Shown: positions 22,001 to 63,322 of the stretch, piece after piece
Layout: every line of letters starts with the position of its first letter
How positions within the stretch are numbered: position 1 is the stretch's first letter
Source of the DNA: an uncultured Mycoplasmatota bacterium
GTDB taxonomy: Bacteria; Bacillota_I; Bacilli_A; RF39; UBA660
Direction: 5' to 3'
Assembly (NCBI GenBank): GCA_900552495.1
Contig: URZY01000003.1
Location: forward strand, 12,813-76,812
Length of the DNA: 64,000 bases
The notes under the pieces: generated by a model
Database searches by the model: none
What the model saw: the letters and a program-made list of their open reading frames with translations, nothing else
What the model was told of the DNA's origin: nothing
Program-made: the position numbers and the translations under genes

Positions 22001-22849
22001 TTATAACCAATCTATTTTTTTTATATCCTGTTTTTTTGTAAATTCTTTATATATTTCTTTTAATCGATTTTCGTAGTTAGTAATTTCGGAAATCAACATT
22101 TTAAATTGCATATTATTAATCGCAGAGACCAATAATCCATCATAGTAATAATTAGGAAATATTAATCTTGCATACACTAATTCCAAATTTATATTTTCAT
22201 AATTTGAAAGTAATTGATTTAATTTGGTGGTTGTTATATCCTGTTTTCTAATTATTTTTCTTATTTTTTCACTTAATTCTCTCTCTTCAATATCAACAAT
22301 CAAGTTAAGTGGATTATAAAGTTCGCCTTCTTCTAATACTCTATAAGTTAAAATCTGAGTTTTATTTTCTGGGTTCAAACCGTTAACATATGCTATGGCC
22401 GTTTCTGCCATAGAATCATAATAGTTATATATTGTTATATCATACTCTTCTTTAGAATTTTTATTAATTATTTTGCTATAATAGTCTTTCTTTTTTATCC
22501 ATAATTTTTTCCAGTCTGTTTTTACTATTTCTCCATTTATCTTAGTGGTGAGTTTTATAGGAGATGATAAATTTGCTTTGATTTTATGAGTTTCTAGTAG
22601 TACATAATTGTGACCGTTTAATATACTATATAGTTGATTGTCTTTGCTTTTTTGAATGTAATAAAACCTTTCTCTTAAATGTTCTTGCTCTATTATTTGA
22701 TTAATATTTTCTAATTCATCCAACTTATCTGTCTCACAAAGAATATATCTTTTTTCTCCATCCTTAATTCTAATACTATTTTTCACCTTATAAATTGTGG
22801 GATCTTTTAAATTATAATTATACTTTAAAAAATATTTCATACGCATCAC
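22001..22849 (-). CDS. CotS/YutH-like spore-coat kinase-fold protein, catalytic residues apparently degenerate
   Basis: Its size, its position near yutD and the NifU-like gene, and the C-terminal pattern ...LNLIVDIEERELSEKI... resemble the CotS family. The canonical HxD...N is missing. Confidence 0.35.
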   Translation of the reverse strand: MMRMKYFLKYNYNLKDPTIYKVKNSIRIKDGEKRYILCETDKLDELENINQIIEQEHLRERFYYIQKSKDNQLYSILNGHNYVLLETHKIKANLSSPIKLTTKINGEIVKTDWKKLWIKKKDYYSKIINKNSKEEYDITIYNYYDSMAETAIAYVNGLNPENKTQILTYRVLEEGELYNPLNLIVDIEERELSEKIRKIIRKQDITTTKLNQLLSNYENINLELVYARLIFPNYYYDGLLVSAINNMQFKMLISEITNYENRLKEIYKEFTKKQDIKKIDWL

Positions 22850-26048: not shown

Positions 26049-26828
26049 CTAACGTAGTGTTTTTTTCAATTGTTTAATAGCCCCTTTCTCTAATCTTGAT
26101 ACTTGTGCTTGACTAATGCTTAACTCATCAGCAATTTCCATTTGGGTTTTCCCTATTATGAATCTTTGGTCAAGAATATATTTTTCGCGCTCTTCTAAAT
26201 TATCAATTGCTGCAGAAACCGCTAATTTTGTAGATAGCTCATTACTATTGGATCTTTTATCTTCAATTTGATCACATAAATAAATAGTATCCCCTCCATC
26301 ATTATAGATGGGTTCATACATACTAACAGGTTCTTTTAAGGATTCTAAGGCGGTGACTACATCATAGGGTTCCACTTCCAATCGACAAGCTAAATCTTCA
26401 ATTGACATTTCAATTCCAAATTCATTATGGTATTCCTCTTTTAATTTTAATGCTTTATATGCTAGGTCTTTAAGAGAACGGCTTACTCTAATACTACTAG
26501 TGTTATCGCGGATATAGCGTTTTACTTCTCCTAAAATCATTGGAACCGCATAGGTTGAGAATTTGACTTCATGGGATAAGTCAAAATTGTCAATTGCTTT
26601 TAAGAGCCCGATACAGCCAATCTGAAAAAGATCATCCATGTTTTCTGTTCTATTCATAAATTTTCTTAGTATTGATAAAACTAGTTTTAAGTTTCCCTGT
26701 ACCAGTAAGTCACGTGCAAATTCATCGCCACTTTGCATCTTTCTAAAAAGTTCATTCATTTCCTCCTGTTTTAATACTATTATATCATTTGTATTAATAC
26801 CGCTTATTTCTACCTTGTATTTTGCCAT
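26049..26828 (-). CDS. sigG: sporulation sigma factor SigG
   Basis: Near-colinear with B. subtilis SigG: KVEISG...VLKQEEMNELFRKMQSGD...DDLFQIGCIGLLKAIDNFDLSHEVKFSTYAVPMI.GE.KRY.RDN..IRVSRSL. ATG 26828 lies 8 nt after GAGGAGAG. Confidence 0.85.
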   Translation of the reverse strand: MAKYKVEISGINTNDIIVLKQEEMNELFRKMQSGDEFARDLLVQGNLKLVLSILRKFMNRTENMDDLFQIGCIGLLKAIDNFDLSHEVKFSTYAVPMILGEVKRYIRDNTSSIRVSRSLKDLAYKALKLKEEYHNEFGIEMSIEDLACRLEVEPYDVVTALESLKEPVSMYEPIYNDGGDTIYLCDQIEDKRSNSNELSTKLAVSAAIDNLEEREKYILDQRFIIGKTQMEIADELSISQAQVSRLEKGAIKQLKKTLR

Positions 26829-26892
26829 ATAAAAATCTCTCCTCACATCAATAGTGGTTGGAGAGATTATTTTTTATTCACTTTTTTCTATT

Positions 26893-32080: not shown

Positions 32081-32941
32081 CTATTTATTGGGTTGTTGGT
32101 ATTTTTTATAATATTTTAATAGAAAATTATTTGTTTTGCTAACATAATCAACAGCATTTCTAACATTTATTAAATTGACAATTGTGGAGTTTTTAAATGT
32201 TAATTTCGGTGGTATAGCAATAAGGGCATTAAATAGCATTTGTTCCTCATTAGTATAAGTATATTTAGCTTGATATTGTTCAAATAACGAGGTCATTTCA
32301 ACATTTTTAAATTCATTGTGATAGAACGAAAGAAAATCATAGATGACTAAATCTCTAGTAGCATAATCCCAATTAATGAAGTATGGTTTTTCTCCTATTA
32401 GGAAGTGTTCTAAAGATAAGTTTTTATGAAGCATTACTGTTCGTTCTCTCGTTAAACTACTTTTTTCTTTATACCAATTGTCTAACTCTCCTTCTGAAAA
32501 TCTTAATGCCTTATAAAAGGTCGAAATGTTTATCATTAGCAGGTATTCAGCCGGAGACATAAATTCTCTAGTTTCTAGAAAATCTTGTAAATCTAGATAG
32601 TAATTGCGAAGATATGTTATTTTTTCTTTAATATCATTATATAACGCTTTAGTTTTTTCCAAATCAATCTCTTGATATGTTGTTGTTTTAACATGAAGAA
32701 TAATAAGATTATTAATTAATTCAATTGCTTTATCTGAATCTGGAATATTTAATTCTTCTATATAGGGATAGACTTCATACTGTGGAGTTATAGTTAATGG
32801 TTCTAAAAAATTATTAAAGCCTTTTAATCGTAGATAATTAAATGTGGTGGTGTTTTCCTTTTTGCGTAATTTATATAAATATTTTCCCTTATCGGTTTCA
32901 ACTATTTTAGATTTACTTTTATAATTAATTATCTTGGGCAT
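32081..32941 (-). CDS. YsxE/CotS-family spore-coat kinase-fold protein
   Basis: LHKNLSLEHFLIGEKPYFINWDYATRDLVIYDF mirrors the HGD....N...IDWD..D..DL kinase core. It overlaps the SpoVID-like gene, as in B. subtilis spoVID-ysxE. Confidence 0.55.
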   Translation of the reverse strand: MPKIINYKSKSKIVETDKGKYLYKLRKKENTTTFNYLRLKGFNNFLEPLTITPQYEVYPYIEELNIPDSDKAIELINNLIILHVKTTTYQEIDLEKTKALYNDIKEKITYLRNYYLDLQDFLETREFMSPAEYLLMINISTFYKALRFSEGELDNWYKEKSSLTRERTVMLHKNLSLEHFLIGEKPYFINWDYATRDLVIYDFLSFYHNEFKNVEMTSLFEQYQAKYTYTNEEQMLFNALIAIPPKLTFKNSTIVNLINVRNAVDYVSKTNNFLLKYYKKYQQPNK

Positions 32942-41591: not shown

Positions 41592-42668
41592 CTATTCTTT
41601 ATGATCTATTTGTTTTACTACTTCTACTTCAACTTTATTTATTGCCTCAAATTTTTTAGTAATTTTATCTGTAGTTATTGTGACATTTTCAACATCTTTA
41701 TTAACAGTTTGAATACTCTTGGCTAGTTTATCCCAACGTTCCTTATAACGAGAGAACTCTAATCCTAGTTTATTTAGTTCTTCATGAATAATGGATGTAT
41801 ATTTATCACGTTCCATATTTTTGATAATCATTTCTACAACGGTAAGCGTTGAGATCAAAGTTGTTGGTGAAGTAATCCAAACTCGTTTTTTGTAGGCATA
41901 ATTAATAATATCTTGGTGATAGGCATTTACCTCGGCAAAAATTGCTTCAGCTGGGAGAAAAAGAATAGCTTGTTCGGCAGTTTCCCCGGGAATTATATAT
42001 TTACTACTAATCGCATCTATATGTTTTTTCATATCTTGTTTAAACATCTTTTCATAGTTATCTCGCATATCTTGAGATAATTTCTTATCAACCATTAATT
42101 GATAGTGCTCTAGTGGAAACTTAGAATCGATTGCGATAGTTCCTAAGGGTTCTGGTGCGAAAACAACAGAATCAGCTATAACTCCAGTTGATAAAGTGTA
42201 TTGTAATTTAAAGATATTATCATTTTTCTCACCAAAGACACTTGTTAAAATATGCTTCAAATTTACTTCCCCAAAAATTCCCCTGGTCTTTTTGTCTGTT
42301 AAAATACTTTGGAGGCTAACAATATCCGTAGAAAGTGTTTCAATTTTCTTTTGTGCTTCGTCAATTTTTGATAAGCGTTCAATAACATTCATAAAAGTTT
42401 TATTAGTTTTTTCGAAATTTTCATCAAGACGAGTATTGACCTTTTCATTAATGGCTAAAAGTCGTCTTTCTAATTGCTCATTTAAATCTTGAAAATCTTT
42501 ATTCATATTACGACTCAACTCAGATTTAAAGTCACCCATTTCTTTCATCATGCTTACTTCTAATTTGCCAAGACGTTCTGTTATGTTACTTTCATTAATA
42601 TTTTTAAATAAGGAAATAACTCCTATAATTAATATTATTATTAATAAAATTATAATTATATAATCCAT
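41592..42668 (-). CDS. rmuC: DNA recombination protein RmuC
   Basis: N-terminal TM, a long coiled coil, and the RmuC core IAIDSKFPLEHY. Confidence 0.8.
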   Translation of the reverse strand: MDYIIIILLIIILIIGVISLFKNINESNITERLGKLEVSMMKEMGDFKSELSRNMNKDFQDLNEQLERRLLAINEKVNTRLDENFEKTNKTFMNVIERLSKIDEAQKKIETLSTDIVSLQSILTDKKTRGIFGEVNLKHILTSVFGEKNDNIFKLQYTLSTGVIADSVVFAPEPLGTIAIDSKFPLEHYQLMVDKKLSQDMRDNYEKMFKQDMKKHIDAISSKYIIPGETAEQAILFLPAEAIFAEVNAYHQDIINYAYKKRVWITSPTTLISTLTVVEMIIKNMERDKYTSIIHEELNKLGLEFSRYKERWDKLAKSIQTVNKDVENVTITTDKITKKFEAINKVEVEVVKQIDHKE

Positions 42669-44908: not shown

Positions 44909-47338
44909 TTAATTATCAAAAAAGTCATCGAAGAAGTCATCATCATTGTCATCATCAGTAAGTGTTAAGTCAGCAGTTGGTTGTGGTACTTCTTTTATCG
45001 GTTCTACCATTTTTTCTTCTAAAGGTTTAAGTGGTTTATTTTCTTTAGGATCTGTTGCATTTATAAAATCGTCTAAACTAGCGATTGGTGAGGCGCTAGT
45101 AGATGCCTTTGGTACTGCTACTGGTCTAGTTTGAGGTGTGGCAACAGGTTTATTAACCACTTCTTTAGATGAAAGTGGACTAACTTTATTTTCTTCTTTA
45201 GCTCTTTTCTCTTCGGCTTCTAATTCAGCAATTTTAGCGTCAATCTTTTTTACCAATTCATCAACATCAAAACCTAAGTCATCATCCTCTATTGGCTTCG
45301 AAGTTGATTTTGTTTGTGGTTTTATTTGTTGCATAGTTGGTCGTGATGGAAAAATTGGCGTATTTGAGAAATCTTTAATTGCCTCTGATGATGCTTCGTT
45401 AGAAACACTTCTGCCACGAACCATACCACCCATTCTTGGTGCGTTACCCATTACCCTTTTTTCTTCCTGCTCATAAGGACTACGAGTTAAGAAGTCTGGA
45501 TACTGATTTTGATTTTGAACTGGTTTATCAAAAGGTTCTGGTTCTTTGTGCATAAAATCTGTAGGATTCATTCTTGGCATTGGCTGCTTTTGAGGTGGAG
45601 TTTGATTTGTACTATTCATCATTTCAAGCAGTTTTTTCTTTTTTTGTTCCTTAACAAACTCTTTAATATCAAAGGTTGAAACTTGGCGTTTTTTTCGAAC
45701 TGGGTACTTGGCTGTTGGATATTTTTTACCCCAGTCCAATTTGAAGTATGGAGTAAACTTTGTTTTGAATGGTTGTTTACGCATACGAAGGATTATCACT
45801 TCAAACTGTTTCATACGTTGTAAGTCTGAAACTGTTACTAGTGGTGTGGAAGCGGTTTTATCGTCCTTTTTGGATTTAACTTCTCCACACATTTTTGATA
45901 TTTCTTCTAAGGCTTTTAATTCTGTTGTAATTAAATAAATAGTGTTACCACAGTTACCTCTAATTGTCTCAGCATCTTCTTTTCCATATACAGAATCTAA
46001 TTGAGCAAAGTTTTGAATAATCATTGTAAATCTTATGCCACGTGAACGAGCGGCTGTAATCATCGTTGTTACATCTTTTAGAGGTGGCATATTGGCAAAT
46101 TCATCCAATAAGAAATTTGTTCTTACAGGAAGTTTTCCACCATGTCTTTGTGCAACGGAAATTAGGGTTTCATAAATTTGTTTTAAAAGAATAGTGACCA
46201 AGGAATGATAGGTTTTCTTTTCGTCTTGAATTACAATGAAAACAGCGGTTGGCCTTTCACCTATACTTTCTAAATCAACATCACTATACGATAGCATTTC
46301 ACTAAGATTATCACGTGAAGCAAATAATTTAACTTTTTGTTTAAATACCGATAGGATACTTCCTTTTGTCTCAGTTGGTGCCATAATGGTAGAGGAAGCA
46401 TTGATGGCAGCTGCGCTAGCAGGATCTTTTCCCGCAAAGTATTCTTTAATATAAGTTGAGCCACCAAATTTTTCTTCTCCTACTGTTGTCGCTAGAGAAA
46501 TACTATTGATATTTATTTCCTCAGGTTTAGCATCTTCAAATAAGCCTAGCGCTACTCCTGAAAAATAATCAGCAGAGGTTTTTTCCCAAAAAGGATCTGC
46601 ATTTTTATTTGAATCATCGTAAAGAATATTTAAAGCTAGGTCGTCTAGCAACTCAATTGCTTTATCCTGTTTACCGGTTTTATACATCTTATATGGTAAA
46701 GACATTGGGTTCCATGCATTACCATTTTGCGGATCACGAAAATTTAATAGTAATATTTGATAACCACGAGCTCGTAACATGTTGCTTGTTTTCTCATAAA
46801 TTTCACCTTTAGGGTCAGTAATAATCATTGATTCTCTGGCTTTGGCTAAACTGTGTACTTGTGGTAATATTACAGTTTGAGTTTTACCGGAACCAGTTGC
46901 TCCGATAACTAAAGAGTGATATTCACTATTATCAACCCACATTTCCTTTTCATTTAAAATGATAGGAACTCCAGCTGCCTTAGCATTACGTTGCTGAATT
47001 TCTACTCTCTCAAGTTCTTCTTTTATTTCTTTATCTTTAGCCCATCTTGAATAACCTTTATCTTTTTTGTCGGTTGTAATTCCAAAACCTTTTTCTCTTT
47101 CAAAGAAGTATGAGCTGACACTAACAAATAATCCTCCTAGTGTTAATAAATAAAATACAATAGTTGGAAATATATAATCAGGTCCAAAGGCAGGAAATGG
47201 ATTAAACCCAGCAAAAGTTCCTTCGGCAGCAAAGGTTGACAAATTGACAACAGCAATGGCAATTATATATAAAAGGACTAAGGCAAAGCCACCAAATATA
47301 AGCCAATCTTCTAAATCTGCACGTAATTTAAGTTTCAT
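44909..47338 (-). CDS. VirD4/TraG-type type IV coupling protein with ~270-aa low-complexity C-terminal extension
   Basis: Two N-terminal TM segments, Walker A VIGATGSGKTQ, ITDPKGE, and Walker B-like LLDEFANMP. The tail is P/Q/K-rich and ends DDDNDDDFFDDFFDN. Confidence 0.8.
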   Translation of the reverse strand: MKLKLRADLEDWLIFGGFALVLLYIIAIAVVNLSTFAAEGTFAGFNPFPAFGPDYIFPTIVFYLLTLGGLFVSVSSYFFEREKGFGITTDKKDKGYSRWAKDKEIKEELERVEIQQRNAKAAGVPIILNEKEMWVDNSEYHSLVIGATGSGKTQTVILPQVHSLAKARESMIITDPKGEIYEKTSNMLRARGYQILLLNFRDPQNGNAWNPMSLPYKMYKTGKQDKAIELLDDLALNILYDDSNKNADPFWEKTSADYFSGVALGLFEDAKPEEININSISLATTVGEEKFGGSTYIKEYFAGKDPASAAAINASSTIMAPTETKGSILSVFKQKVKLFASRDNLSEMLSYSDVDLESIGERPTAVFIVIQDEKKTYHSLVTILLKQIYETLISVAQRHGGKLPVRTNFLLDEFANMPPLKDVTTMITAARSRGIRFTMIIQNFAQLDSVYGKEDAETIRGNCGNTIYLITTELKALEEISKMCGEVKSKKDDKTASTPLVTVSDLQRMKQFEVIILRMRKQPFKTKFTPYFKLDWGKKYPTAKYPVRKKRQVSTFDIKEFVKEQKKKKLLEMMNSTNQTPPQKQPMPRMNPTDFMHKEPEPFDKPVQNQNQYPDFLTRSPYEQEEKRVMGNAPRMGGMVRGRSVSNEASSEAIKDFSNTPIFPSRPTMQQIKPQTKSTSKPIEDDDLGFDVDELVKKIDAKIAELEAEEKRAKEENKVSPLSSKEVVNKPVATPQTRPVAVPKASTSASPIASLDDFINATDPKENKPLKPLEEKMVEPIKEVPQPTADLTLTDDDNDDDFFDDFFDN

Positions 47339-48174: not shown

Positions 48175-50502
48175 TTACCCCTCCACTTTAAAGCAAGCTA
48201 ATCTACTTGTATTTTGCCAATTGTATTGTCCCCATAAGTCGGTTGAGGTACTACCGGGATCCATCATTAGAACTTGCGAACCAGAAACAGTATCAATTGC
48301 TACCCAGTGTTGTCCAGTATTGCCTTTTACTTCGGCAGTTACGTAGCAACCATTATTTAGTAGTTCTGTAATCGCATTAAGTTTTTGTTGTTTTGAGTAA
48401 CCAGATACAGCGTATGAGCCTTGATATTTAAAGGTTGGAGCGGCAAGTGAGGCAGCAGACCAAACAAAGTTTCCACCACTAACAAAGCCACCATTTTTAC
48501 TAAGATATTCAACGAATGTTCCAGGATTAAAATCAGTAATCGTTGTAGGAACGCCACTTTTAGCGATTAGAATTGCAACAGAAGTAGCCAAACAGCCGAT
48601 TTGTTTGATTGTTTTACCGCTATTGCCTAGGTAAACGCCAGCCCATGGTCCTTCATATTGTTTCCAACTGGCAAATGGTCCTGTTGAAGCATTACCACAT
48701 GATGAGGATCCGGAAGTATTACATGACATTTTTTGAACATCAGCAGCTCCATATGGTCTAGCTGAAGAGTTATAAACCTCTAGGAGAATTTGCTTATAAT
48801 TCATCCCTGAATTAGCATAGTTTGTGAATTTATTGGACTCTGTAGATAAATATCCCGCTGAAATTATATATCCTTCAGCATTAACTAAAACTTCTCCTTC
48901 GGTGGCAGCTGCTGCAGTACGTAATTGGTGATCAGCAGCTAGAGCATCCCTTGTTCTAATAGCACCGCTGTGATTAGTACCACTTCGAACTATTCCGCCT
49001 TGTCCATCACCACCGCCCATATAAGAACAGCCTTCATTGATATTACAGAAAACTTGATCGGCAACGCAGGAAGATATTTGTAACACCCATTGGTTGCCCT
49101 CTTGCTCCAACTTTTTTCCAGCAGCATTACCCATAGCTGTCGGTCTTGCTAAAGCGAAGCTTCTAGCGGCTACCATTTGTGCCTTTAAAGCCTCCATTGG
49201 GGCATATGATCCTATTTCAGCGTTGGCCACACCTGCAACGTACTCTTCGAATGGTACCATATCTTGATCAATTGGGGTTGTGTAACTTCCATTTCCATAA
49301 GGTGAACCACATTCCATTAACCGTACCATTAGATTGGAAATTTGCATTGGCTTAGAGACATTACCACCACCTGGGATGTAGAAGCCTTTTATATCATAAG
49401 TACAGGAACCAGAGGCAGCACAACTAAGAGTGGAATCCTTGCCAATGAAGCTATAGTATCTTTCTATATAGTCAAAGACATCTTCAGCTAACTGTTCTCG
49501 GGCTGATTGTGAATATCTTGGAAAGTAACTGGCAAAAATATCATTAATTAAATTATCTTTAAAAGTTGTTTCACTGTACATATTTCCACTAAACATTGCA
49601 TTGGCAATTTCTTCAATTCTAGCGGTTGTCATATAATCATAATCATAATCACTATTATTAACATTCAATACATGATAAACGGCTACTACCTTGAGCGAAT
49701 CTACTGTTTTTCCATTAGCTTGAAATGATAGTTTTACATCGTTAACTCTTTCATAAAAAGCCTGAGCGTCTTCACTAGTGGCACTAAAGACTATTTCACC
49801 AGTATCTTCACCAGTAAGAGCACTAATACCTAAGGCATCATCAAAATCGTTAACACCTCCACCAATAATAGAAATTACCATTAAAAATAGCATTAATAAA
49901 CCAAATGCAGGCAAAACAGGTAGTAAAACTTTTTTAATGTCAATGGTTCCTTTAAGAAAGGCTAAAAAGTCCGTATCTTTGTTATTAACATCTTCTTCGG
50001 GATTTTCTGACTCATTTGGGTCATCAAAAAAACTTGAAGGCTGTTTTTTACCTCCAAATCCACCTAGTTTGCCAAGTCCCCCTAGTCCACCAAATGAACT
50101 TTCTGATGAATCGCTTGAACCATCGGTACCATTTGTATTTTGGTTAGTCGGTGTAGTTGGAGTTGCTCCAGTAGCACCGTTGTACATAGAGGCTGCTTGA
50201 CCAACTTTATCGGTCATACCACTTTCATTCATTTTATTAATGCCATTTTGTAACTGACTGCCACCAGGCATTGTTTGATTAGTTCTATTTAAGGCTTTTC
50301 CTAAAGCTTCTGAACTCTTACCTTTTGTTGCTTTATCTGCTACTTTAACAGCGGCCCCTGCGGCCATTGCATAAGGATTTTTAGTAGCAATGGCTACGTC
50401 AGCGGCTTTTTTGACAGTATTTGTATTATTGCGTTCATTTCGTTCTTTTTGGGACATTTGATTATCGCCACGATTTGCTTCATACGCCATTGCTACCACC
50501 AC
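48175..50502 (-). CDS. bifunctional cell-wall hydrolase: SpoIID/LytB-like domain plus C-terminal papain-like Cys peptidase
   Basis: A TM at about residue 200, a SpoIID-like segment EEYVAGVANAEIG...EALKAQMVAARSFAL, and a C-terminal Cys/His pair GCLATSVAIL ... GQHWVAIDTV. Confidence 0.65.
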   Translation of the reverse strand: MVVAMAYEANRGDNQMSQKERNERNNTNTVKKAADVAIATKNPYAMAAGAAVKVADKATKGKSSEALGKALNRTNQTMPGGSQLQNGINKMNESGMTDKVGQAASMYNGATGATPTTPTNQNTNGTDGSSDSSESSFGGLGGLGKLGGFGGKKQPSSFFDDPNESENPEEDVNNKDTDFLAFLKGTIDIKKVLLPVLPAFGLLMLFLMVISIIGGGVNDFDDALGISALTGEDTGEIVFSATSEDAQAFYERVNDVKLSFQANGKTVDSLKVVAVYHVLNVNNSDYDYDYMTTARIEEIANAMFSGNMYSETTFKDNLINDIFASYFPRYSQSAREQLAEDVFDYIERYYSFIGKDSTLSCAASGSCTYDIKGFYIPGGGNVSKPMQISNLMVRLMECGSPYGNGSYTTPIDQDMVPFEEYVAGVANAEIGSYAPMEALKAQMVAARSFALARPTAMGNAAGKKLEQEGNQWVLQISSCVADQVFCNINEGCSYMGGGDGQGGIVRSGTNHSGAIRTRDALAADHQLRTAAAATEGEVLVNAEGYIISAGYLSTESNKFTNYANSGMNYKQILLEVYNSSARPYGAADVQKMSCNTSGSSSCGNASTGPFASWKQYEGPWAGVYLGNSGKTIKQIGCLATSVAILIAKSGVPTTITDFNPGTFVEYLSKNGGFVSGGNFVWSAASLAAPTFKYQGSYAVSGYSKQQKLNAITELLNNGCYVTAEVKGNTGQHWVAIDTVSGSQVLMMDPGSTSTDLWGQYNWQNTSRLACFKVEG

Positions 50503-50519: not shown

Positions 50520-52310
50520 TTAGAATCCTCCACCTGTTCCAAAAGACTCTAACTCTTCTTTTGTTACAGCAACATTTATTCTCATACGTCTACTACCACA
50601 AACAAATAGAGCTTCTCCTTGAGAATAACGTTTTATACTTTCTTTTTCATTTTCATTTAAATCTATTAATAATGCTAAATCTTCTACAGCTTGTTTCTTT
50701 AAGCCCATTACTAAGTAATAAGATGCATTATCAAAAATTGCTTTTCCTTCTGTAATTACTGCTGGAGCAGCGAAATCACTAGGCTGTTGTGTAATAATAA
50801 TTGTTCCGGTATTATATTTACGCGCACGTCTTTGAACTTGGGCTAAGAATTCAGCTCCCTGCTGGTTACGATCACCTAGTAAAACATGAGCTTCATCGAC
50901 TAGCATGACTGTATCAACGCTTGCATCAAGACATAATCCCCAGGCATATTTTAAGACGTTAAATAGTAAAGCATTTCTAATATTGCTATCACTATTCATT
51001 AGTTCTTTTATATTAAATACCATAAAGTCACTATTTTTTCTTAGAGTTGTATGTCCATCAAAATAAAATCTTAATTCCTTAACGATTGGTCGAACTTCTA
51101 ATTCTAGTCTTTCCATAATATCACGTTCTTTTGTTTGATCTGTCATTGATAAAAGACGTCCTTTTATTGTGGCATAAACATCAGAAAAAACTGGAAAGTC
51201 AGCGGATGTAAAATGCGAAAAGTCAGTATCAAAGTCTATTCCAAAACGTTTATATGTATCTTGAACAACATCGCTAAACATAGCTAAAACATCATTAGCA
51301 ATAGTTGGGTTATAATACTTCATAAAGCCTTTTAAGAATTGTAAGGTTCTATTTAACACAGTATACCCCATTCCATTTTTTATTTCTTCCTCATCAGCAT
51401 CAAAGACTACTTCAAGGGGATTAATTAAACCAAAATCTCCACCTTTACCAATATCGATGGTATCGCCTCCAAATGATTTAGTAATATCTCTAAATTCATC
51501 TTCTGGGTCAATAATAACTATTTGACAACCATTTCTAATATGCGTTCTTAATAATAGTTTGGCTGCTGTTGATTTTCCGGAACCGGAAGTACCAAGAATA
51601 ATCATATTAGCATTGTTTCTATTATGTTCTTTTCTAATTTTATATAAGAATTGGTTAAACAAAATTACTCCACCGGAAAAATCAACACCCAATAATGTTG
51701 ATAGCCCTGGGTCTTTAATGCTATCAAAAATAAATGGATACATGGCTGCTACTGTAACTGATGGTATCGGAGTACCAATTCGTTGTTCAATATCTTGAGG
51801 TGGAAAAATTGGCAACATTGATTTTAAAACTTTTTCTTGTTCAAAACGTAAAGAAATTGCCTTTAACTCCATTGCATCAAGATAGTTTTTTACATTCATT
51901 TTCTTTAATTCTAAGGTTTCTTTAGTATCAGCAGAAACCATAATATGCATTTGAAAATCAAAGTTTCTAGCTTGGCTTCCTGCGATCATTGATGTAAAAT
52001 ATTCCAAGCTTTCAGCATCTTGACGATATCTTTCACGAAGCGTTTGATCACGTTCGTTTTGGTATTTTTCTTTTAAGTCAGCTATTTCTTTGTTTAACAT
52101 TTTAACCATATCTTGATATGGAACGGGAATATGCTTAATGACAATCTTAATTCCAGCCATATTAGTTAGGGATGCTAAATAACCTGGCGTTATATATTTA
52201 GGAAATGAAACAACAGTTAAAATTGTTGCATATTTGTCACTTATAAAAAAATCACTTGGTGAAAAATGTAGCCCTTTTGGAGCTAATTGGCTTCTTATTC
52301 CTGTACTCAT
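50520..52310 (-). CDS. VirB4/TrsE-type conjugation ATPase, ATPase portion
   Basis: Walker A ILGTSGSGKST and Walker B MLVDEAHVLL. 596 aa. Confidence 0.8.
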   Translation of the reverse strand: MSTGIRSQLAPKGLHFSPSDFFISDKYATILTVVSFPKYITPGYLASLTNMAGIKIVIKHIPVPYQDMVKMLNKEIADLKEKYQNERDQTLRERYRQDAESLEYFTSMIAGSQARNFDFQMHIMVSADTKETLELKKMNVKNYLDAMELKAISLRFEQEKVLKSMLPIFPPQDIEQRIGTPIPSVTVAAMYPFIFDSIKDPGLSTLLGVDFSGGVILFNQFLYKIRKEHNRNNANMIILGTSGSGKSTAAKLLLRTHIRNGCQIVIIDPEDEFRDITKSFGGDTIDIGKGGDFGLINPLEVVFDADEEEIKNGMGYTVLNRTLQFLKGFMKYYNPTIANDVLAMFSDVVQDTYKRFGIDFDTDFSHFTSADFPVFSDVYATIKGRLLSMTDQTKERDIMERLELEVRPIVKELRFYFDGHTTLRKNSDFMVFNIKELMNSDSNIRNALLFNVLKYAWGLCLDASVDTVMLVDEAHVLLGDRNQQGAEFLAQVQRRARKYNTGTIIITQQPSDFAAPAVITEGKAIFDNASYYLVMGLKKQAVEDLALLIDLNENEKESIKRYSQGEALFVCGSRRMRINVAVTKEELESFGTGGGF

Positions 52311-52861
52311 ACTGGCATCACTACTCCAAACTCAGTTGTACTTCCACCATTTAGGAAGTTATCTAGTACTATTCGTAAATCAGAATTACTTGCTTGAGCA
52401 GCTGCTAGACCGCATGTTGCTAAGCCGTTAATCATCATTCTTACTCTTTTTGCAAGAATATCTGGATCTTTAGATTTAAACAAGAAATAGTATTCTGTGT
52501 CAACAACATTATTATTAATAAAGGTTTGTCCTTTAGCAATATCTTGGGCAATTAATTTTCTAATTGCTGGGGAATGAGCATCATTATATAGCAATTGTAA
52601 TTGTGACATATAAACAGATATATCAACAGGTCGATCAGCTACAACTAGCCAAAATTCAAAATCAATTGTATTGTAGAAATTTTTTAGACTTATTAACATG
52701 TTGTCTTGTGCAATTGGATCAAGAATAAAAATGTTTTTCGGAGATATTTTTACTCCTGTTATTTTATGATTATCCGTTGTAATAATCATATTATTTTGTA
52801 TACCTTTTACTGGTAACCAAGCTTCAGTGGAACCATATCCACTACTTCTTTTTGTTGCCAC
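52307..52861 (-). CDS. VirB4 N-terminal-domain-like protein (separate ORF)
   Basis: 184 aa with the pattern WLPVKGIQNNMIITTDNHKITGVKISPKNIFIL, typical of the VirB4 N-terminus in Gram-positive systems. Its stop overlaps the next start in ATGA. Confidence 0.5.
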   Translation of the reverse strand: MATKRSSGYGSTEAWLPVKGIQNNMIITTDNHKITGVKISPKNIFILDPIAQDNMLISLKNFYNTIDFEFWLVVADRPVDISVYMSQLQLLYNDAHSPAIRKLIAQDIAKGQTFINNNVVDTEYYFLFKSKDPDILAKRVRMMINGLATCGLAAAQASNSDLRIVLDNFLNGGSTTEFGVVMPV

Positions 52862-58012: not shown

Positions 58013-58468
58013 TCACCACCCTACAACTATCGGCTTAGTATCACCCGAAACTTGAAATATTTTAAGTCCAGGTAATATTTTGTTGATAATTGGTATGTCG
58101 ATGTTTATTTGCGTAACTACCTTAAAATATGCTCTATCTTTAGTATCATCTGTACTGGATGTTGCAGGCTTAGCAATATCAATTTTTTTAAAGCAATAAC
58201 CATTGCCACATGTATATCCGTCCCCAGTCAAATCAAAATTGGGAGCATCATAGCCAAGCTGTTTCATATATTCTAGTATTTGGATATGACATTGATTATT
58301 TGCATCAATTGCACATTGGCCTTCATATTGTTCAAAGGTCGAAATAATTTTATTTTTTACTCTGAATGCTTTCGTATAGTTTACATTGAAAGCTAGATAT
58401 CCAGAAACTAAAACTAGGAAGACAACAATAATTACTAAGTTGACTACCCCACCAAAAGCATCACGCAT
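58013..58468 (-). CDS. prepilin-like (TadE/pseudopilin-like) protein
   Basis: The N-terminus MRDAFGG-VVNLVIIVVFLVLVSGYLAF is a short charged leader, then Gly, then a hydrophobic helix. Confidence 0.5.
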   Translation of the reverse strand: MRDAFGGVVNLVIIVVFLVLVSGYLAFNVNYTKAFRVKNKIISTFEQYEGQCAIDANNQCHIQILEYMKQLGYDAPNFDLTGDGYTCGNGYCFKKIDIAKPATSSTDDTKDRAYFKVVTQINIDIPIINKILPGLKIFQVSGDTKPIVVGW

Positions 58469-58487: not shown

Positions 58488-58646
58488 TTATCTTTCTACA
58501 ATGATTGTACCACCACTGATATTATCCCATTGAGCATTTAATGAATTTTGAATATTTGGCCACATAATCCAGAAGAATCCGATTACAGCAGCAATTGCTA
58601 TCAATGTAATAACTGTTAAGTTTAATTCACCTGTCGCATCTTTCAT
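58488..58646 (-). CDS. 52-aa Flp-like type IV pilin (not in ORF track)
   Basis: MKDATGELNLTVITLIAIAAVIGFFWIMWPNIQNSLNAQWDNISGGTIIVER. It has its own RBS and promoter, sits between the TadC-like and pseudopilin genes, and has the size and architecture of Flp pilins. Confidence 0.6.
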   Translation of the reverse strand: MKDATGELNLTVITLIAIAAVIGFFWIMWPNIQNSLNAQWDNISGGTIIVER

Positions 58647-58679
58647 TTACAATACACATCCTTTCATTATTCTAAATTT

Positions 58680-58708
58680 ATTATAACAAAATTATATTTG
58701 TTAAACAA
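58680..58708 (-). promoter_or_regulatory. extended -10 promoter directly upstream of the Flp-like pilin gene
   Basis: Minus strand has TTGTTT, 17 nt (ending in TGT), then TATAAT. Confidence 0.55.
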
Positions 58709-62845: not shown

Positions 62846-63322
62846 TTAATCATTACTTCTTGAACCGATTGCTTTACCCATATCATCGTTAGGATCGGCT
62901 AAAGCATCTCTTGTAAAGTCATCCCTTGTGTAATCAGTTTCAATGATTGCATCTAGGTTTGTTGATATATTTGCTGATTCTCCAGAAAAGCTTAGTACTG
63001 TTAATGAATCTACCTTAACACTTACTTTTGGAGGAACTTCGTTAATATCATAAAAACTTATATAATATGAACGAGTATTGTCTACACTATCGGCAAATCG
63101 ACGAAGGAAGCTCTCAACGAACTTCTCTTTGTCAATTCTTATTAATGAGTTTAGTCGATAATATTCTGTATCAATAGCATCTTCCATAGCTGCTTCTGTT
63201 GTTTCTTTAACTAGGTAGTAGTCTAACTCGCCACCTGTTGAGTAGTTACTAATTACATTGATTAGTAATAATGCGATTAAGCTTAGTAAGATAATACCTA
63301 CTGTTAACATTCCCTTATTCAT
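62846..63322 (-). CDS. prepilin-like (pseudopilin) protein
   Basis: N-terminus MNKG-MLTVGIILLSLIALLLINVI followed by an acidic ectodomain. Confidence 0.45.
   Translation of the reverse strand: MNKGMLTVGIILLSLIALLLINVISNYSTGGELDYYLVKETTEAAMEDAIDTEYYRLNSLIRIDKEKFVESFLRRFADSVDNTRSYYISFYDINEVPPKVSVKVDSLTVLSFSGESANISTNLDAIIETDYTRDDFTRDALADPNDDMGKAIGSRSND

Follow-up and report, generated by a model that had tools for sequence, protein, structure and literature searches.

A conserved 52-codon gene within a Tad-like module of a monoderm type IV secretion cluster encodes a candidate mini-pilin

The 64,000-nucleotide stretch of DNA analyzed here (the window; contig URZY01000003.1, positions 12,813 to 76,812) derives from an uncultured Mycoplasmatota bacterium and carries on its minus strand a 52-codon gene (58488-58646), flanked by genes that resemble the assembly machinery of Flp/Tad pili. 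The 52-residue product is probably the major subunit of a Tad-type pilus or pseudopilus, that is, of a type IV filament (TFF). This reading was reached by sequence comparison and draws on selection acting on the gene, the conservation of its promoter, a leader shared with a neighboring protein, homology of the surrounding machinery and linkage to genes of a type IV secretion system (T4SS). A first-pass annotation of the window had proposed an unannotated Flp-like pilin gene at this site, and the results given below uphold part of that proposal and revise the rest.

The small open reading frame (ORF) was examined in 80 species-level genome loci, fetched with the upstream 269-residue protein as query. 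It was found directly after the 269-residue gene in 79 of these loci, the sole exception being a locus that stops ~330 bp past that gene. Conservation in related genomes, the lack of which the first-pass annotation had named as grounds for discarding its proposal, was thus confirmed. Over the first 44 codons of 70 distinct orthologues, the pooled ratio of nonsynonymous to synonymous substitution (dN/dS) was ~0.14, and variation was found at the third codon position in 40 of 44 columns compared to 14 of 44 for the second. The family extends well beyond these loci: 838 clusters at 90% identity were found among 5.8 billion proteins, and when the 50%-identity representatives were searched exhaustively by profile, 531 clusters were recovered (E<=1e-3). 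Among the 120 of the 838 clusters that were listed, the proteins are 47-67 residues long, bear the name 'hypothetical protein' or none, and have no Pfam domain. The gene is therefore unannotated in the functional sense (no Pfam or NCBIfam family covers it), but not in the sense of being overlooked altogether, since gene callers do call its orthologues. No match to plasmids was detected by megablast of the 56-64 kb region or by tblastn of the 52-residue protein.

An ORF of only 52 codons might have arisen by chance in AT-rich intergenic DNA, as the genome is ~30% GC and both ATG-to-stop runs and TATAAT strings are common at this composition. This explanation was ruled out by the comparative data (the presence of the ORF across species, the low dN/dS and the strong third-position bias in variation) and fits poorly with the hundreds of diverged family clusters and with the retention of a Shine-Dalgarno sequence and promoter; we assign it a negligible probability. 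Judged by these comparisons, the 52-codon ORF is a real gene under purifying selection, as the first-pass annotation had supposed.

The gap between the stop of the 269-residue gene (58725) and the ATG of the small gene is 78 nt. The TGnTATAAT promoter that the first-pass annotation had placed here, at 58680-58708, was recovered: the extended -10 string TGtTATAAT lies at 58688-58680 on the minus strand, with a predicted transcription start near 58673, and of 81 distinct orthologous intergenic regions, 75 contain TGnTA[TA]AAT. Relative to the ATG, the motif ranges from -26 to -65, with most copies at -38 to -46. In the orthologous regions a -35 element of the TTG type is located ~17 nt 5' of the conserved -10, while the spacer and flanking bases diverge freely. 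Likewise, GAAAGGA or GGAAGGA precedes the ATG in essentially all of them. The recurrence of the -10 motif is far above chance, and the phylogenetic footprint clearly points to a predicted internal extended -10 promoter that serves the small gene. A generic promoter scan of the region was uninformative in DNA of 30% GC (43 hits compared to 46 expected in shuffled sequence), and it passed over the small-gene promoter because the -35 of the latter matches at just 3 of 6 positions. No terminator was detected after the small gene and the next ATG is just 19 nt downstream, such that the predicted promoter would also read into the downstream genes.

The protein itself was found to have a simple architecture. 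An in-frame TAA lies immediately 5' of the ATG, and the polar leader can therefore be no longer than MKDATG, which is its exact sequence. The Kyte-Doolittle hydropathy maximum is at residues ~8-29 and is followed by a short amphipathic or variable tail. AlphaFold2, when supplied with the family alignment, modeled one continuous helix (residues 10-46) with a mean predicted local distance difference test (pLDDT) score of 82. Even among the 50%-identity representatives, the first ~26 residues are almost invariant (MK[EAD]A[TS]GELN[LM]T[VL][VI]T..AIAA), and beyond residue ~45 the family is hypervariable in sequence and length.

A second clade of the family was found by use of a 94-residue representative and 80 further genome loci. 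The small gene is present in this clade as two tandem paralogues of 66-99 residues with the N-terminus MKEATGELNMT (e.g., locus L091, 10001-10552), the products of which have a Cys-rich head of 30-50 residues. The second paralogue ends in a conserved C[PV][WY][KR]G, and the pair is followed by two tandem minor-pilin-like genes that start MRE[AV]IGGTWL. By this comparison, the 52-residue protein of the window is a minimal, tail-only member of its family. Tandem paralogues, a conserved helix and an exposed part that varies together make up the classical pilin pattern, and in this respect the family behaves like a pilin. One further candidate member, P0135 (64 residues, locus L251, 123-317), joins a Flp leader (MRLKLNNKG/QTLVEYVLII) to the family core (AIAAVIGFFW...) and looked like a domain swap; it was rejected as a probable assembly chimera, as it stands on a lone 729-bp contig with a coverage of 0.59.

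The leader was found to be shared with the gene immediately downstream. Both the 52- and 151-residue families have kept the pattern M[KR][DE]AxG ahead of a hydrophobic helix, with the latter reading M[RKQ][DE]A[FYILM]GG before its hydrophobic helix in nearly all of ~200 orthologue N-termini. When all six frames of the window were scanned for M[KRQN][DEAK][AGS]x1-3G plus a hydrophobic run, only these two ORFs were found to fit. The first-pass annotation had described a prepilin-like N-terminus common to three proteins, and the two further starts that it cited (MRDAFGG at 58013-58468 and MNKG at 62846-63322, each followed by a hydrophobic stretch) are indeed present. The likeness is strongest between the 52- and 151-residue proteins. 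The third protein, DUF5411, carries the motif in the second clade (MKExYWGYWLI) but begins with MNK[GSA] in the clade of the window (MNK[GSA]MLTVGII). Leader sharing of this kind is expected of the major and minor pilins of a single system, and the motif is a candidate class III signal (short polar leader, small residue at -1, then a hydrophobic helix).

By size and architecture the small protein resembles a Flp pilin, with 52 residues where ~45-80 are expected, one N-terminal hydrophobic helix and a short tail. Family membership is another matter. No match to PF04964 (Flp/Fap) or PF07811 (TadE), the two families proposed for searching by the first-pass annotation, was detected by hmmscan (E<=1) for the 52-residue, 151-residue or DUF5411 proteins. 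When 136 representatives of the small family were examined, none matched PF04964 at E<=0.1, and three matched PF16982 (Flp1_like) weakly. The absence of the canonical Flp motif G/XXXXEY, which had been pointed out at the outset, was evident also in the family consensus MK[EAD]A[TS]G-ELN[LM]T. Thus, the term Flp-like is apt for the size, architecture and place of the gene after a TadC-like gene, but by hidden Markov model (HMM) and motif the protein is not a member of PF04964. The commonest weak Pfam match among the 136 family members was PF07790, the archaeal type IV pilin N-terminus (sub-threshold in 13, best E 0.0038); the protein of the window did not match it. Nor did the 52-residue protein, a single helix, match PF18895 (VirB2/TrbC T4SS pilin).

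A TFF machine is generically defined by a secretion ATPase, an inner membrane platform and a major pilin (Denise et al. 2019). On the minus strand, the order of genes in the window is DUF5411, CpaB/RcpC-like, ATPase, TadB-like, TadC-like, 52-residue gene and 151-residue gene (Table 1), and the CpaF-type ATPase, RcpC/SAF protein and TadB/TadC-like pair that surround the small gene argue for its being a pilin gene. The 513-residue protein belongs to the PilB/GspE/CpaF superfamily, as does the ATPase of a TFF; its best sequence matches in the PDB were CpaF (71.5 bits), FlaI (70.6) and VirB11 (~52), and the NCBIfam VirB11 and TadA-conjugal models gave 107 bits each, below their cutoffs. The 264-residue protein combines the SAF and RcpC domains that mark the Tad accessory protein CpaB/RcpC, and its score against TIGR03177 CpaB was 44 bits, under the cutoff of 71. 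The ATPase also has a low-complexity P/T/Q-rich C-terminal tail of ~170 residues (~345-513), and its orthologues range from 418 to 737 residues with a tail of highly variable length.

The two platform proteins were identified through a plasmid intermediate. The 300- and 269-residue proteins had no direct match in Pfam, NCBIfam or PDB, and a combined TadB-like profile did not match the PDB either. At E<=1e-3 the two proteins have 7,571 and 7,155 homologues, respectively. By tblastn against plasmids, the 300-residue protein was found to be related to a Priestia koreensis 'type II secretion system F family protein' (E 8e-5). Alignment of the 300-residue family with this T2SSF-family protein (so named by PGAP) using hhalign gave a probability of 97.1% (E 6.7e-11, 235 columns), and alignment of the 269-residue family with the next Priestia gene gave 97.0% (E 8.5e-11, 201 columns). 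The label 'tadC-like' that the first-pass annotation had given to the 269-residue protein is supported by the latter result, transitively only. The Priestia protein and two Bacillus homologues scored 24.2, 21.9 and 15.8 bits against Pfam T2SSF (PF00482; gathering threshold, GA, 25.2). The 300- and 269-residue families were co-linear when aligned with each other, at a level that was not significant (E 0.05). Homology therefore backs the predicted ATPase, CpaB-like, TadB-like and TadC-like assignments, with the platform pair placed transitively.

Two other proteins flank the small gene on its downstream side. The gene for the 151-residue minor-pilin-like protein is tandemly duplicated in 30 loci, and its product was weakly related to the DUF4320 protein of a Bacillus module described below (hhalign E 4e-4, probability 34%). 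The 354-residue protein had no Pfam or PDB match and aligned weakly, at a degenerate P-loop region only, with the AAA_31/ParA-like ATPase of the same module.

The Tad-like module is not a stand-alone Tad locus but the upstream part of one long minus-strand monoderm T4SS cluster, a context that the first-pass annotation missed and that changes the likely function of the module. The cluster (43650-64000 of the window) extends from greA, an upstream boundary seen in the relative locus L173, to rmuC (41592-42668 of the window) and also holds a sortase and an Ig-like surface protein. The T4SS linkage and architecture were the same in every locus examined, the distant second clade included. No relaxase or integrase was detected by Pfam in the cluster, in the window or the relative locus, and the junction of VirD4, a 413-residue protein, (DedA) and RmuC was identical in two other species. 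The cluster has the look of a fixed chromosomal feature and not of a recently mobile one. Beyond the module, the 109- and 375-residue proteins are possible VirB2-like pilins of a Gram-positive T4SS based on their weak matches to PF18895 (Table 1), and the former also weakly matched the NCBIfam 'Mbov_0395 family pilin-like conjugal transfer protein' (E 0.065). The C-terminus of the VirB6-like protein consists of a long coiled region rich in Ala, Lys and Asp and of a Gly/Arg tail (GGGGGRGGRGGRP), and a 675-residue variant that is 68% identical to this protein was found on contigs that are otherwise 97-100% identical in neighboring genes (L003, L005 and L006).

Table 1. Features of the small gene, the Tad-like module and the T4SS cluster, in window coordinates.
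Feature	Position	Strand	Details
52-codon pilin-like gene	58488..58646	-	ATG at 58646, TAA end; product MKDATGELNLTVITLIAIAAVIGFFWIMWPNIQNSLNAQWDNISGGTIIVER
Predicted extended -10 promoter, sigma-A type	58680..58708	-	-35 TTGTTT 58708-58703; 17-nt spacer; TG 58688-58687; -10 TATAAT 58685-58680
Shine-Dalgarno sequence	58659..58665	-	GAAAGGA; 12 nt 5' of ATG
DUF5411 protein, 158 residues	62846..63322	-	PF17424 E 1e-47; MNKG + hydrophobic helix
CpaB/RcpC-like protein, 264 residues	62028..62822	-	RcpC PF16976 30.3 bits (GA 28.8); SAF PF08666 21.6 bits (GA 21)
CpaF/VirB11/FlaI-family secretion ATPase, 513 residues	60449..61990	-	T2SSE PF00437 E 1.8e-27, 96 bits (GA 24.9)
TadB-like polytopic membrane protein, 300 residues	59534..60436	-	Transitive T2SSF link via Priestia plasmid protein
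TadC-like polytopic membrane protein (second platform protein), 269 residues	58725..59534	-	hhalign to Priestia gene after T2SSF-family gene
Minor-pilin-like protein, 151 residues	58013..58468	-	MRDAFGG + hydrophobic helix, then variable Cys-containing domain
Possibly degenerate TadZ/CpaE-like (ParA/MinD-type) protein, 354 residues	56942..58006	-	Weak hhalign match, E 0.011
VirB2-like candidate, 109 residues	56557-56886	-	Two-transmembrane hairpin; PF18895 T4SS_pilin weak, E 0.008
VirB2-like candidate, 375 residues	55344-56471	-	C-terminus weakly PF18895, E 0.006
VirB6-like protein, 711 residues	53180-55315	-	TrbL_4 match in orthologous loci
Small membrane protein, 104 residues	52842-53156	-	
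TraC-like protein	52307-52861	-	TraC-like match in orthologous loci
VirB4	50520-52310	-	Pfam match
SpoIID-type cell-wall hydrolase	48175-50502	-	Pfam match
VirD4	44909-47338	-	Pfam match

Modules of related composition were found on plasmids of Gram-positive bacteria. The TadB-like gene was detected on 363 plasmids, 357 of these from Bacillus and pXO1 among them. Similar to the window, the Bacillus/Priestia plasmids carry such a module, with genes for Ig-like/SLH surface proteins, DUF5411, SAF/CpaB, a ParA-like AAA ATPase, CpaF/VirB11, T2SSF, a hypothetical protein and DUF4320; no T4SS genes were found within the regions examined. The TadC-like gene of these modules is followed by two tandem ORFs of 67-82 residues, annotated as hypothetical (pXO1-type B. 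anthracis, L255, 7671-8153; B. cereus, L254, 7829-8377), in which a long charged leader ending in ...SENG/ML... or ...NESG/MHNLF... precedes a hydrophobic helix. Their alignment with the small family of the window is weak but in register, Gly on Gly and Asn on Asn (E 0.0025-0.009), and from their sequence these tandem ORFs are candidate prepilins of the Bacillus DUF5411/CpaF modules.

A comparable architecture is seen on conjugative plasmids. The blocks of pLS20, pAW63/pXO2 and pXO1 share with the window the gene order of a small transmembrane protein, a CpaF/VirB11 ATPase, two membrane proteins of ~250-300 residues, a transmembrane protein of ~120-150 residues and one or two tandem single-transmembrane ORFs of ~45-85 residues. 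In pLS20, genes 36-41 encode a 126-residue transmembrane protein, a 'putative VirB11' and proteins of 268, 243, 120 and 47 residues listed as 'Unknown', and the authors of that work state that no pilus homologues are present (PMC8557374). CDS 17-23 of pAW63/pXO2 form a comparable block (PMC1196294). On the pLS20-family plasmid NZ_CP063152.1 (L001, 3577-3890), two identical tandem 47-residue ORFs (MLDQNADRMYWVIGAVLVVGALIG...) were found after a 120-residue transmembrane protein that starts MLD..., downstream of a VirB11-like ATPase and two membrane proteins; this block matches the window in architecture, with sequence similarity that is not significant. ATPase identity between the window and the pLS20 family is 35%, and hhalign to pLS20 p38, p39 and p41 was not significant, such that the parallel rests on architecture and the ATPase. 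The small and mid-sized genes stand in opposite order in the window and in pLS20, and the copy in the window is chromosomal with no visible relaxase. An operon of gut Clostridia is also to be compared, by its description: DUF5411 was reported with CpaF and PilC/GspF in a predicted secretion-related operon (Miller, Stern and Burstein 2022, PMC9523054). This operon shares with the window DUF5411, a CpaF-type ATPase, a platform protein, a large surface/adhesin-like protein and a Gram-positive gut host, but it was reported without T4SS genes and with PilA only occasionally near. Our DUF5411 genome scan recovered close relatives only and did not reach the Clostridial operons.

Based on these comparisons, we propose the following mode of action. 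The strong internal promoter directly 5' of the small gene would provide the subunit excess that a fibre needs. The 52-residue protein would be inserted in the membrane, where we conjecture that it is cleaved after Gly6, and a hexameric CpaF-like ATPase would power the TadB/TadC-like membrane platform. We infer that this platform pulls the single-helix subunit out of the membrane and stacks the subunits into a fibre. The 151-residue protein, and possibly DUF5411, may act as minor or priming pilins, and the CpaB-like protein may form an envelope-spanning collar. Given that the module forms the upstream end of a monoderm T4SS cluster, the fibre would most likely serve the adjacent T4SS, and in this role in transfer it would make contact with target cells or help the channel to pass through the thick wall.

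A number of findings weigh against a pilin. The 52-residue protein did not match any pilin family in HMM or PDB sequence searches; the small-family profiles matched only unrelated transmembrane helices in the PDB, and a Foldseek search with the single-helix model returned no match. Prepilin leaders are typically basic. That of the 52-residue protein has a net charge of -1 and only 6 residues, and a cut after Gly6 would place Glu at +1 and Thr at +5, with neither a Tyr nor G/XXXXEY present. Moreover, the genes called within +-10 kb in orthologous loci of both clades (L003-L009, L090 and L091) included no Peptidase_A24, none was present in the Bacillus modules, and no A24 prepilin peptidase was obvious elsewhere in the 64-kb window. 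TFF systems that have no peptidase of their own do exist, with MSH loci relying on a shared one (PMC6668835). The T2SSF link of the platform proteins is transitive and rests on sub-threshold Pfam scores (24.2 compared to 25.2 bits), and the AlphaFold2 model of the 269-residue protein, made from an alignment of relatives of 50-80% identity, had a pLDDT of 62.6 (<50 in the conserved domain), rendering its Foldseek matches meaningless.

The missing peptidase gene and the short, non-basic leader without Glu at +5 would be readily understood if the protein were an uncleaved single-pass membrane subunit of the T4SS/ATPase complex, stoichiometric in the manner of VirB3 or of small type VII secretion system/Sec accessory proteins and never part of an extracellular fibre. 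The conserved N-terminus would then serve in docking to the platform or ATPase instead of as a processing site. The pLS20 counterpart (MLDQNADRMYW...), which has no Gly before its helix, is in keeping with this idea, as is the lack of reported pili for pLS20 and Gram-positive T4SSs (PMC8092201, PMC8557374, PMC12857230). Yet a buried, stoichiometric subunit would hardly be expected to have tandem paralogues and a C-terminal head that is hypervariable and often rich in Cys, the dedicated strong predicted promoter points to a high copy number, and the joint presence of a CpaF-type ATPase, a platform pair, CpaB and minor-pilin-like genes marks a filament assembly system. We consider an uncleaved subunit unlikely, while still a serious alternative. 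A small membrane peptide unrelated to assembly, such as one for surface or entry exclusion, an immunity or toxin-like peptide or a signaling pro-peptide, with specificity residing in the variable C-terminus, would also account for the small size, single transmembrane helix and hypervariable exposed tail, and conjugative operons often carry small exclusion or signaling peptides (e.g., the Phr peptide and Ses protein of pLS20, PMC8557374). Such a peptide seems quite improbable, however, given that the place of the gene right after the TadC-like gene is invariant, that its leader is common to the adjacent minor-pilin-like genes, that prepilin-like ORFs occupy the same slot in Bacillus modules with no T4SS genes in the regions examined, and that the family was not seen outside a Tad-like module in any context inspected.

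The interpretation of the 52-residue protein as a pilin may be set against known filament systems. As in the window, where the pilin and the platform pair are predicted, Flp/Tad systems have a pilin of ~50 residues in which a lone hydrophobic helix stands between a short polar leader and a short tail. Near its gene are those for CpaB/RcpC-like, a CpaF-type ATPase, a pair of single-domain platform paralogues and minor-pilin-like proteins with the leader in common; the Tad systems of monoderms also have no secretin (Denise et al. 2019, PMC6668835). The window departs from them in the absence of PF04964, PF07811 and G/XXXXEY, in a 6-residue leader with Glu adjoining the Gly, in having no TadV/CpaA peptidase gene in the locus and an uncertain TadZ equivalent, and in the presence of DUF5411 and the fusion of the module to a T4SS operon. 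Type IV filament machines beside VirB4/VirD4-type genes are likewise known from the IncI R64/TP114 thin pilus and PAPI-1, the type IV pili of which provide mating contact in Gram-negative conjugation (PMC12857230). By contrast to the window, these are type IVb pili of diderms, with PilS/PilV pilins, PilQ secretins and a PilU/PilD-type peptidase; the window has a Tad-like machine, a monoderm setting and a novel family of probable pilins. VirB2/TrbC pilins (PF18895) are, like the 52-residue protein, small hydrophobic proteins of T4SS clusters, but they are two-helix hairpins, whereas the 52-residue protein is a single helix.

By analogy, the fibre interpretation may extend to the 'VirB11 plus unknown genes' blocks of pLS20, pAW63/pXO2 and pXO1-type plasmids. 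We tentatively suggest, as a possibility that we would not yet favor, that many Gram-positive T4SS clusters build a Tad-derived fibre from an unrecognized mini-pilin family, the leader of which is either processed by a peptidase that is encoded outside the locus or is not of the A24 type, or is left uncut, and that the hybrid machine of the gut Bacilli has possibly been domesticated. Because no relaxase or integrase was seen in the cluster, this machine may be domesticated for uses other than those of a plasmid or integrative and conjugative element, and it may then function in DNA or protein exchange or in cell-cell attachment.

A December 2025 review describes Gram-positive T4SSs as being without VirB2/VirB5 pilins, Patescibacteria excepted, and discusses hybrids of type IV pili and T4SSs for the Gram-negative IncI and PAPI-1 systems only (PMC12857230); similarly, the pLS20 literature holds that Gram-positive T4SSs lack pilins and pili (PMC8092201, PMC8557374). 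In the literature searched, no paper was found that describes a Tad-like pilin in Gram-positive T4SS clusters, an absence that is not proof. A Tad-like module with a putative mini-pilin of high predicted expression, wired into T4SS operons, is a widespread candidate for the means by which Gram-positive donors contact recipients and cross a thick wall. The family, with at least 531 clusters at 50% identity, is a large one for which Pfam and NCBIfam offer no model, and a minimum ORF length can easily hide its members. Its atypical leader is relevant to the rules of class III signal peptide specificity. Tractable relatives exist in pLS20 genes 36-41, pAW63 and pXO1-type plasmids.

The carriers of the cluster are uncultured gut and rumen Bacilli, all known from metagenome-assembled genomes. 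In a one-genome-per-species collection, 266 relatives were found for one clade and 141 for the other, which gives >400 in all provided that no relative is in both sets. Outside the cluster, the window is composed of chromosomal housekeeping genes, including those for RodA, MreCD, ValRS, Lon, trigger factor and RmuC. Its minus strand also encodes a sporulation-type sigma factor and spore-coat kinase-like proteins of the CotS-like kind (22001-22849, 26049-26846 and 32081-32941). Close relatives are labeled 'uncultured Mycoplasma/Tenericutes' or 'Bacilli bacterium', and with sporulation-type genes present these public taxonomic labels look unreliable.

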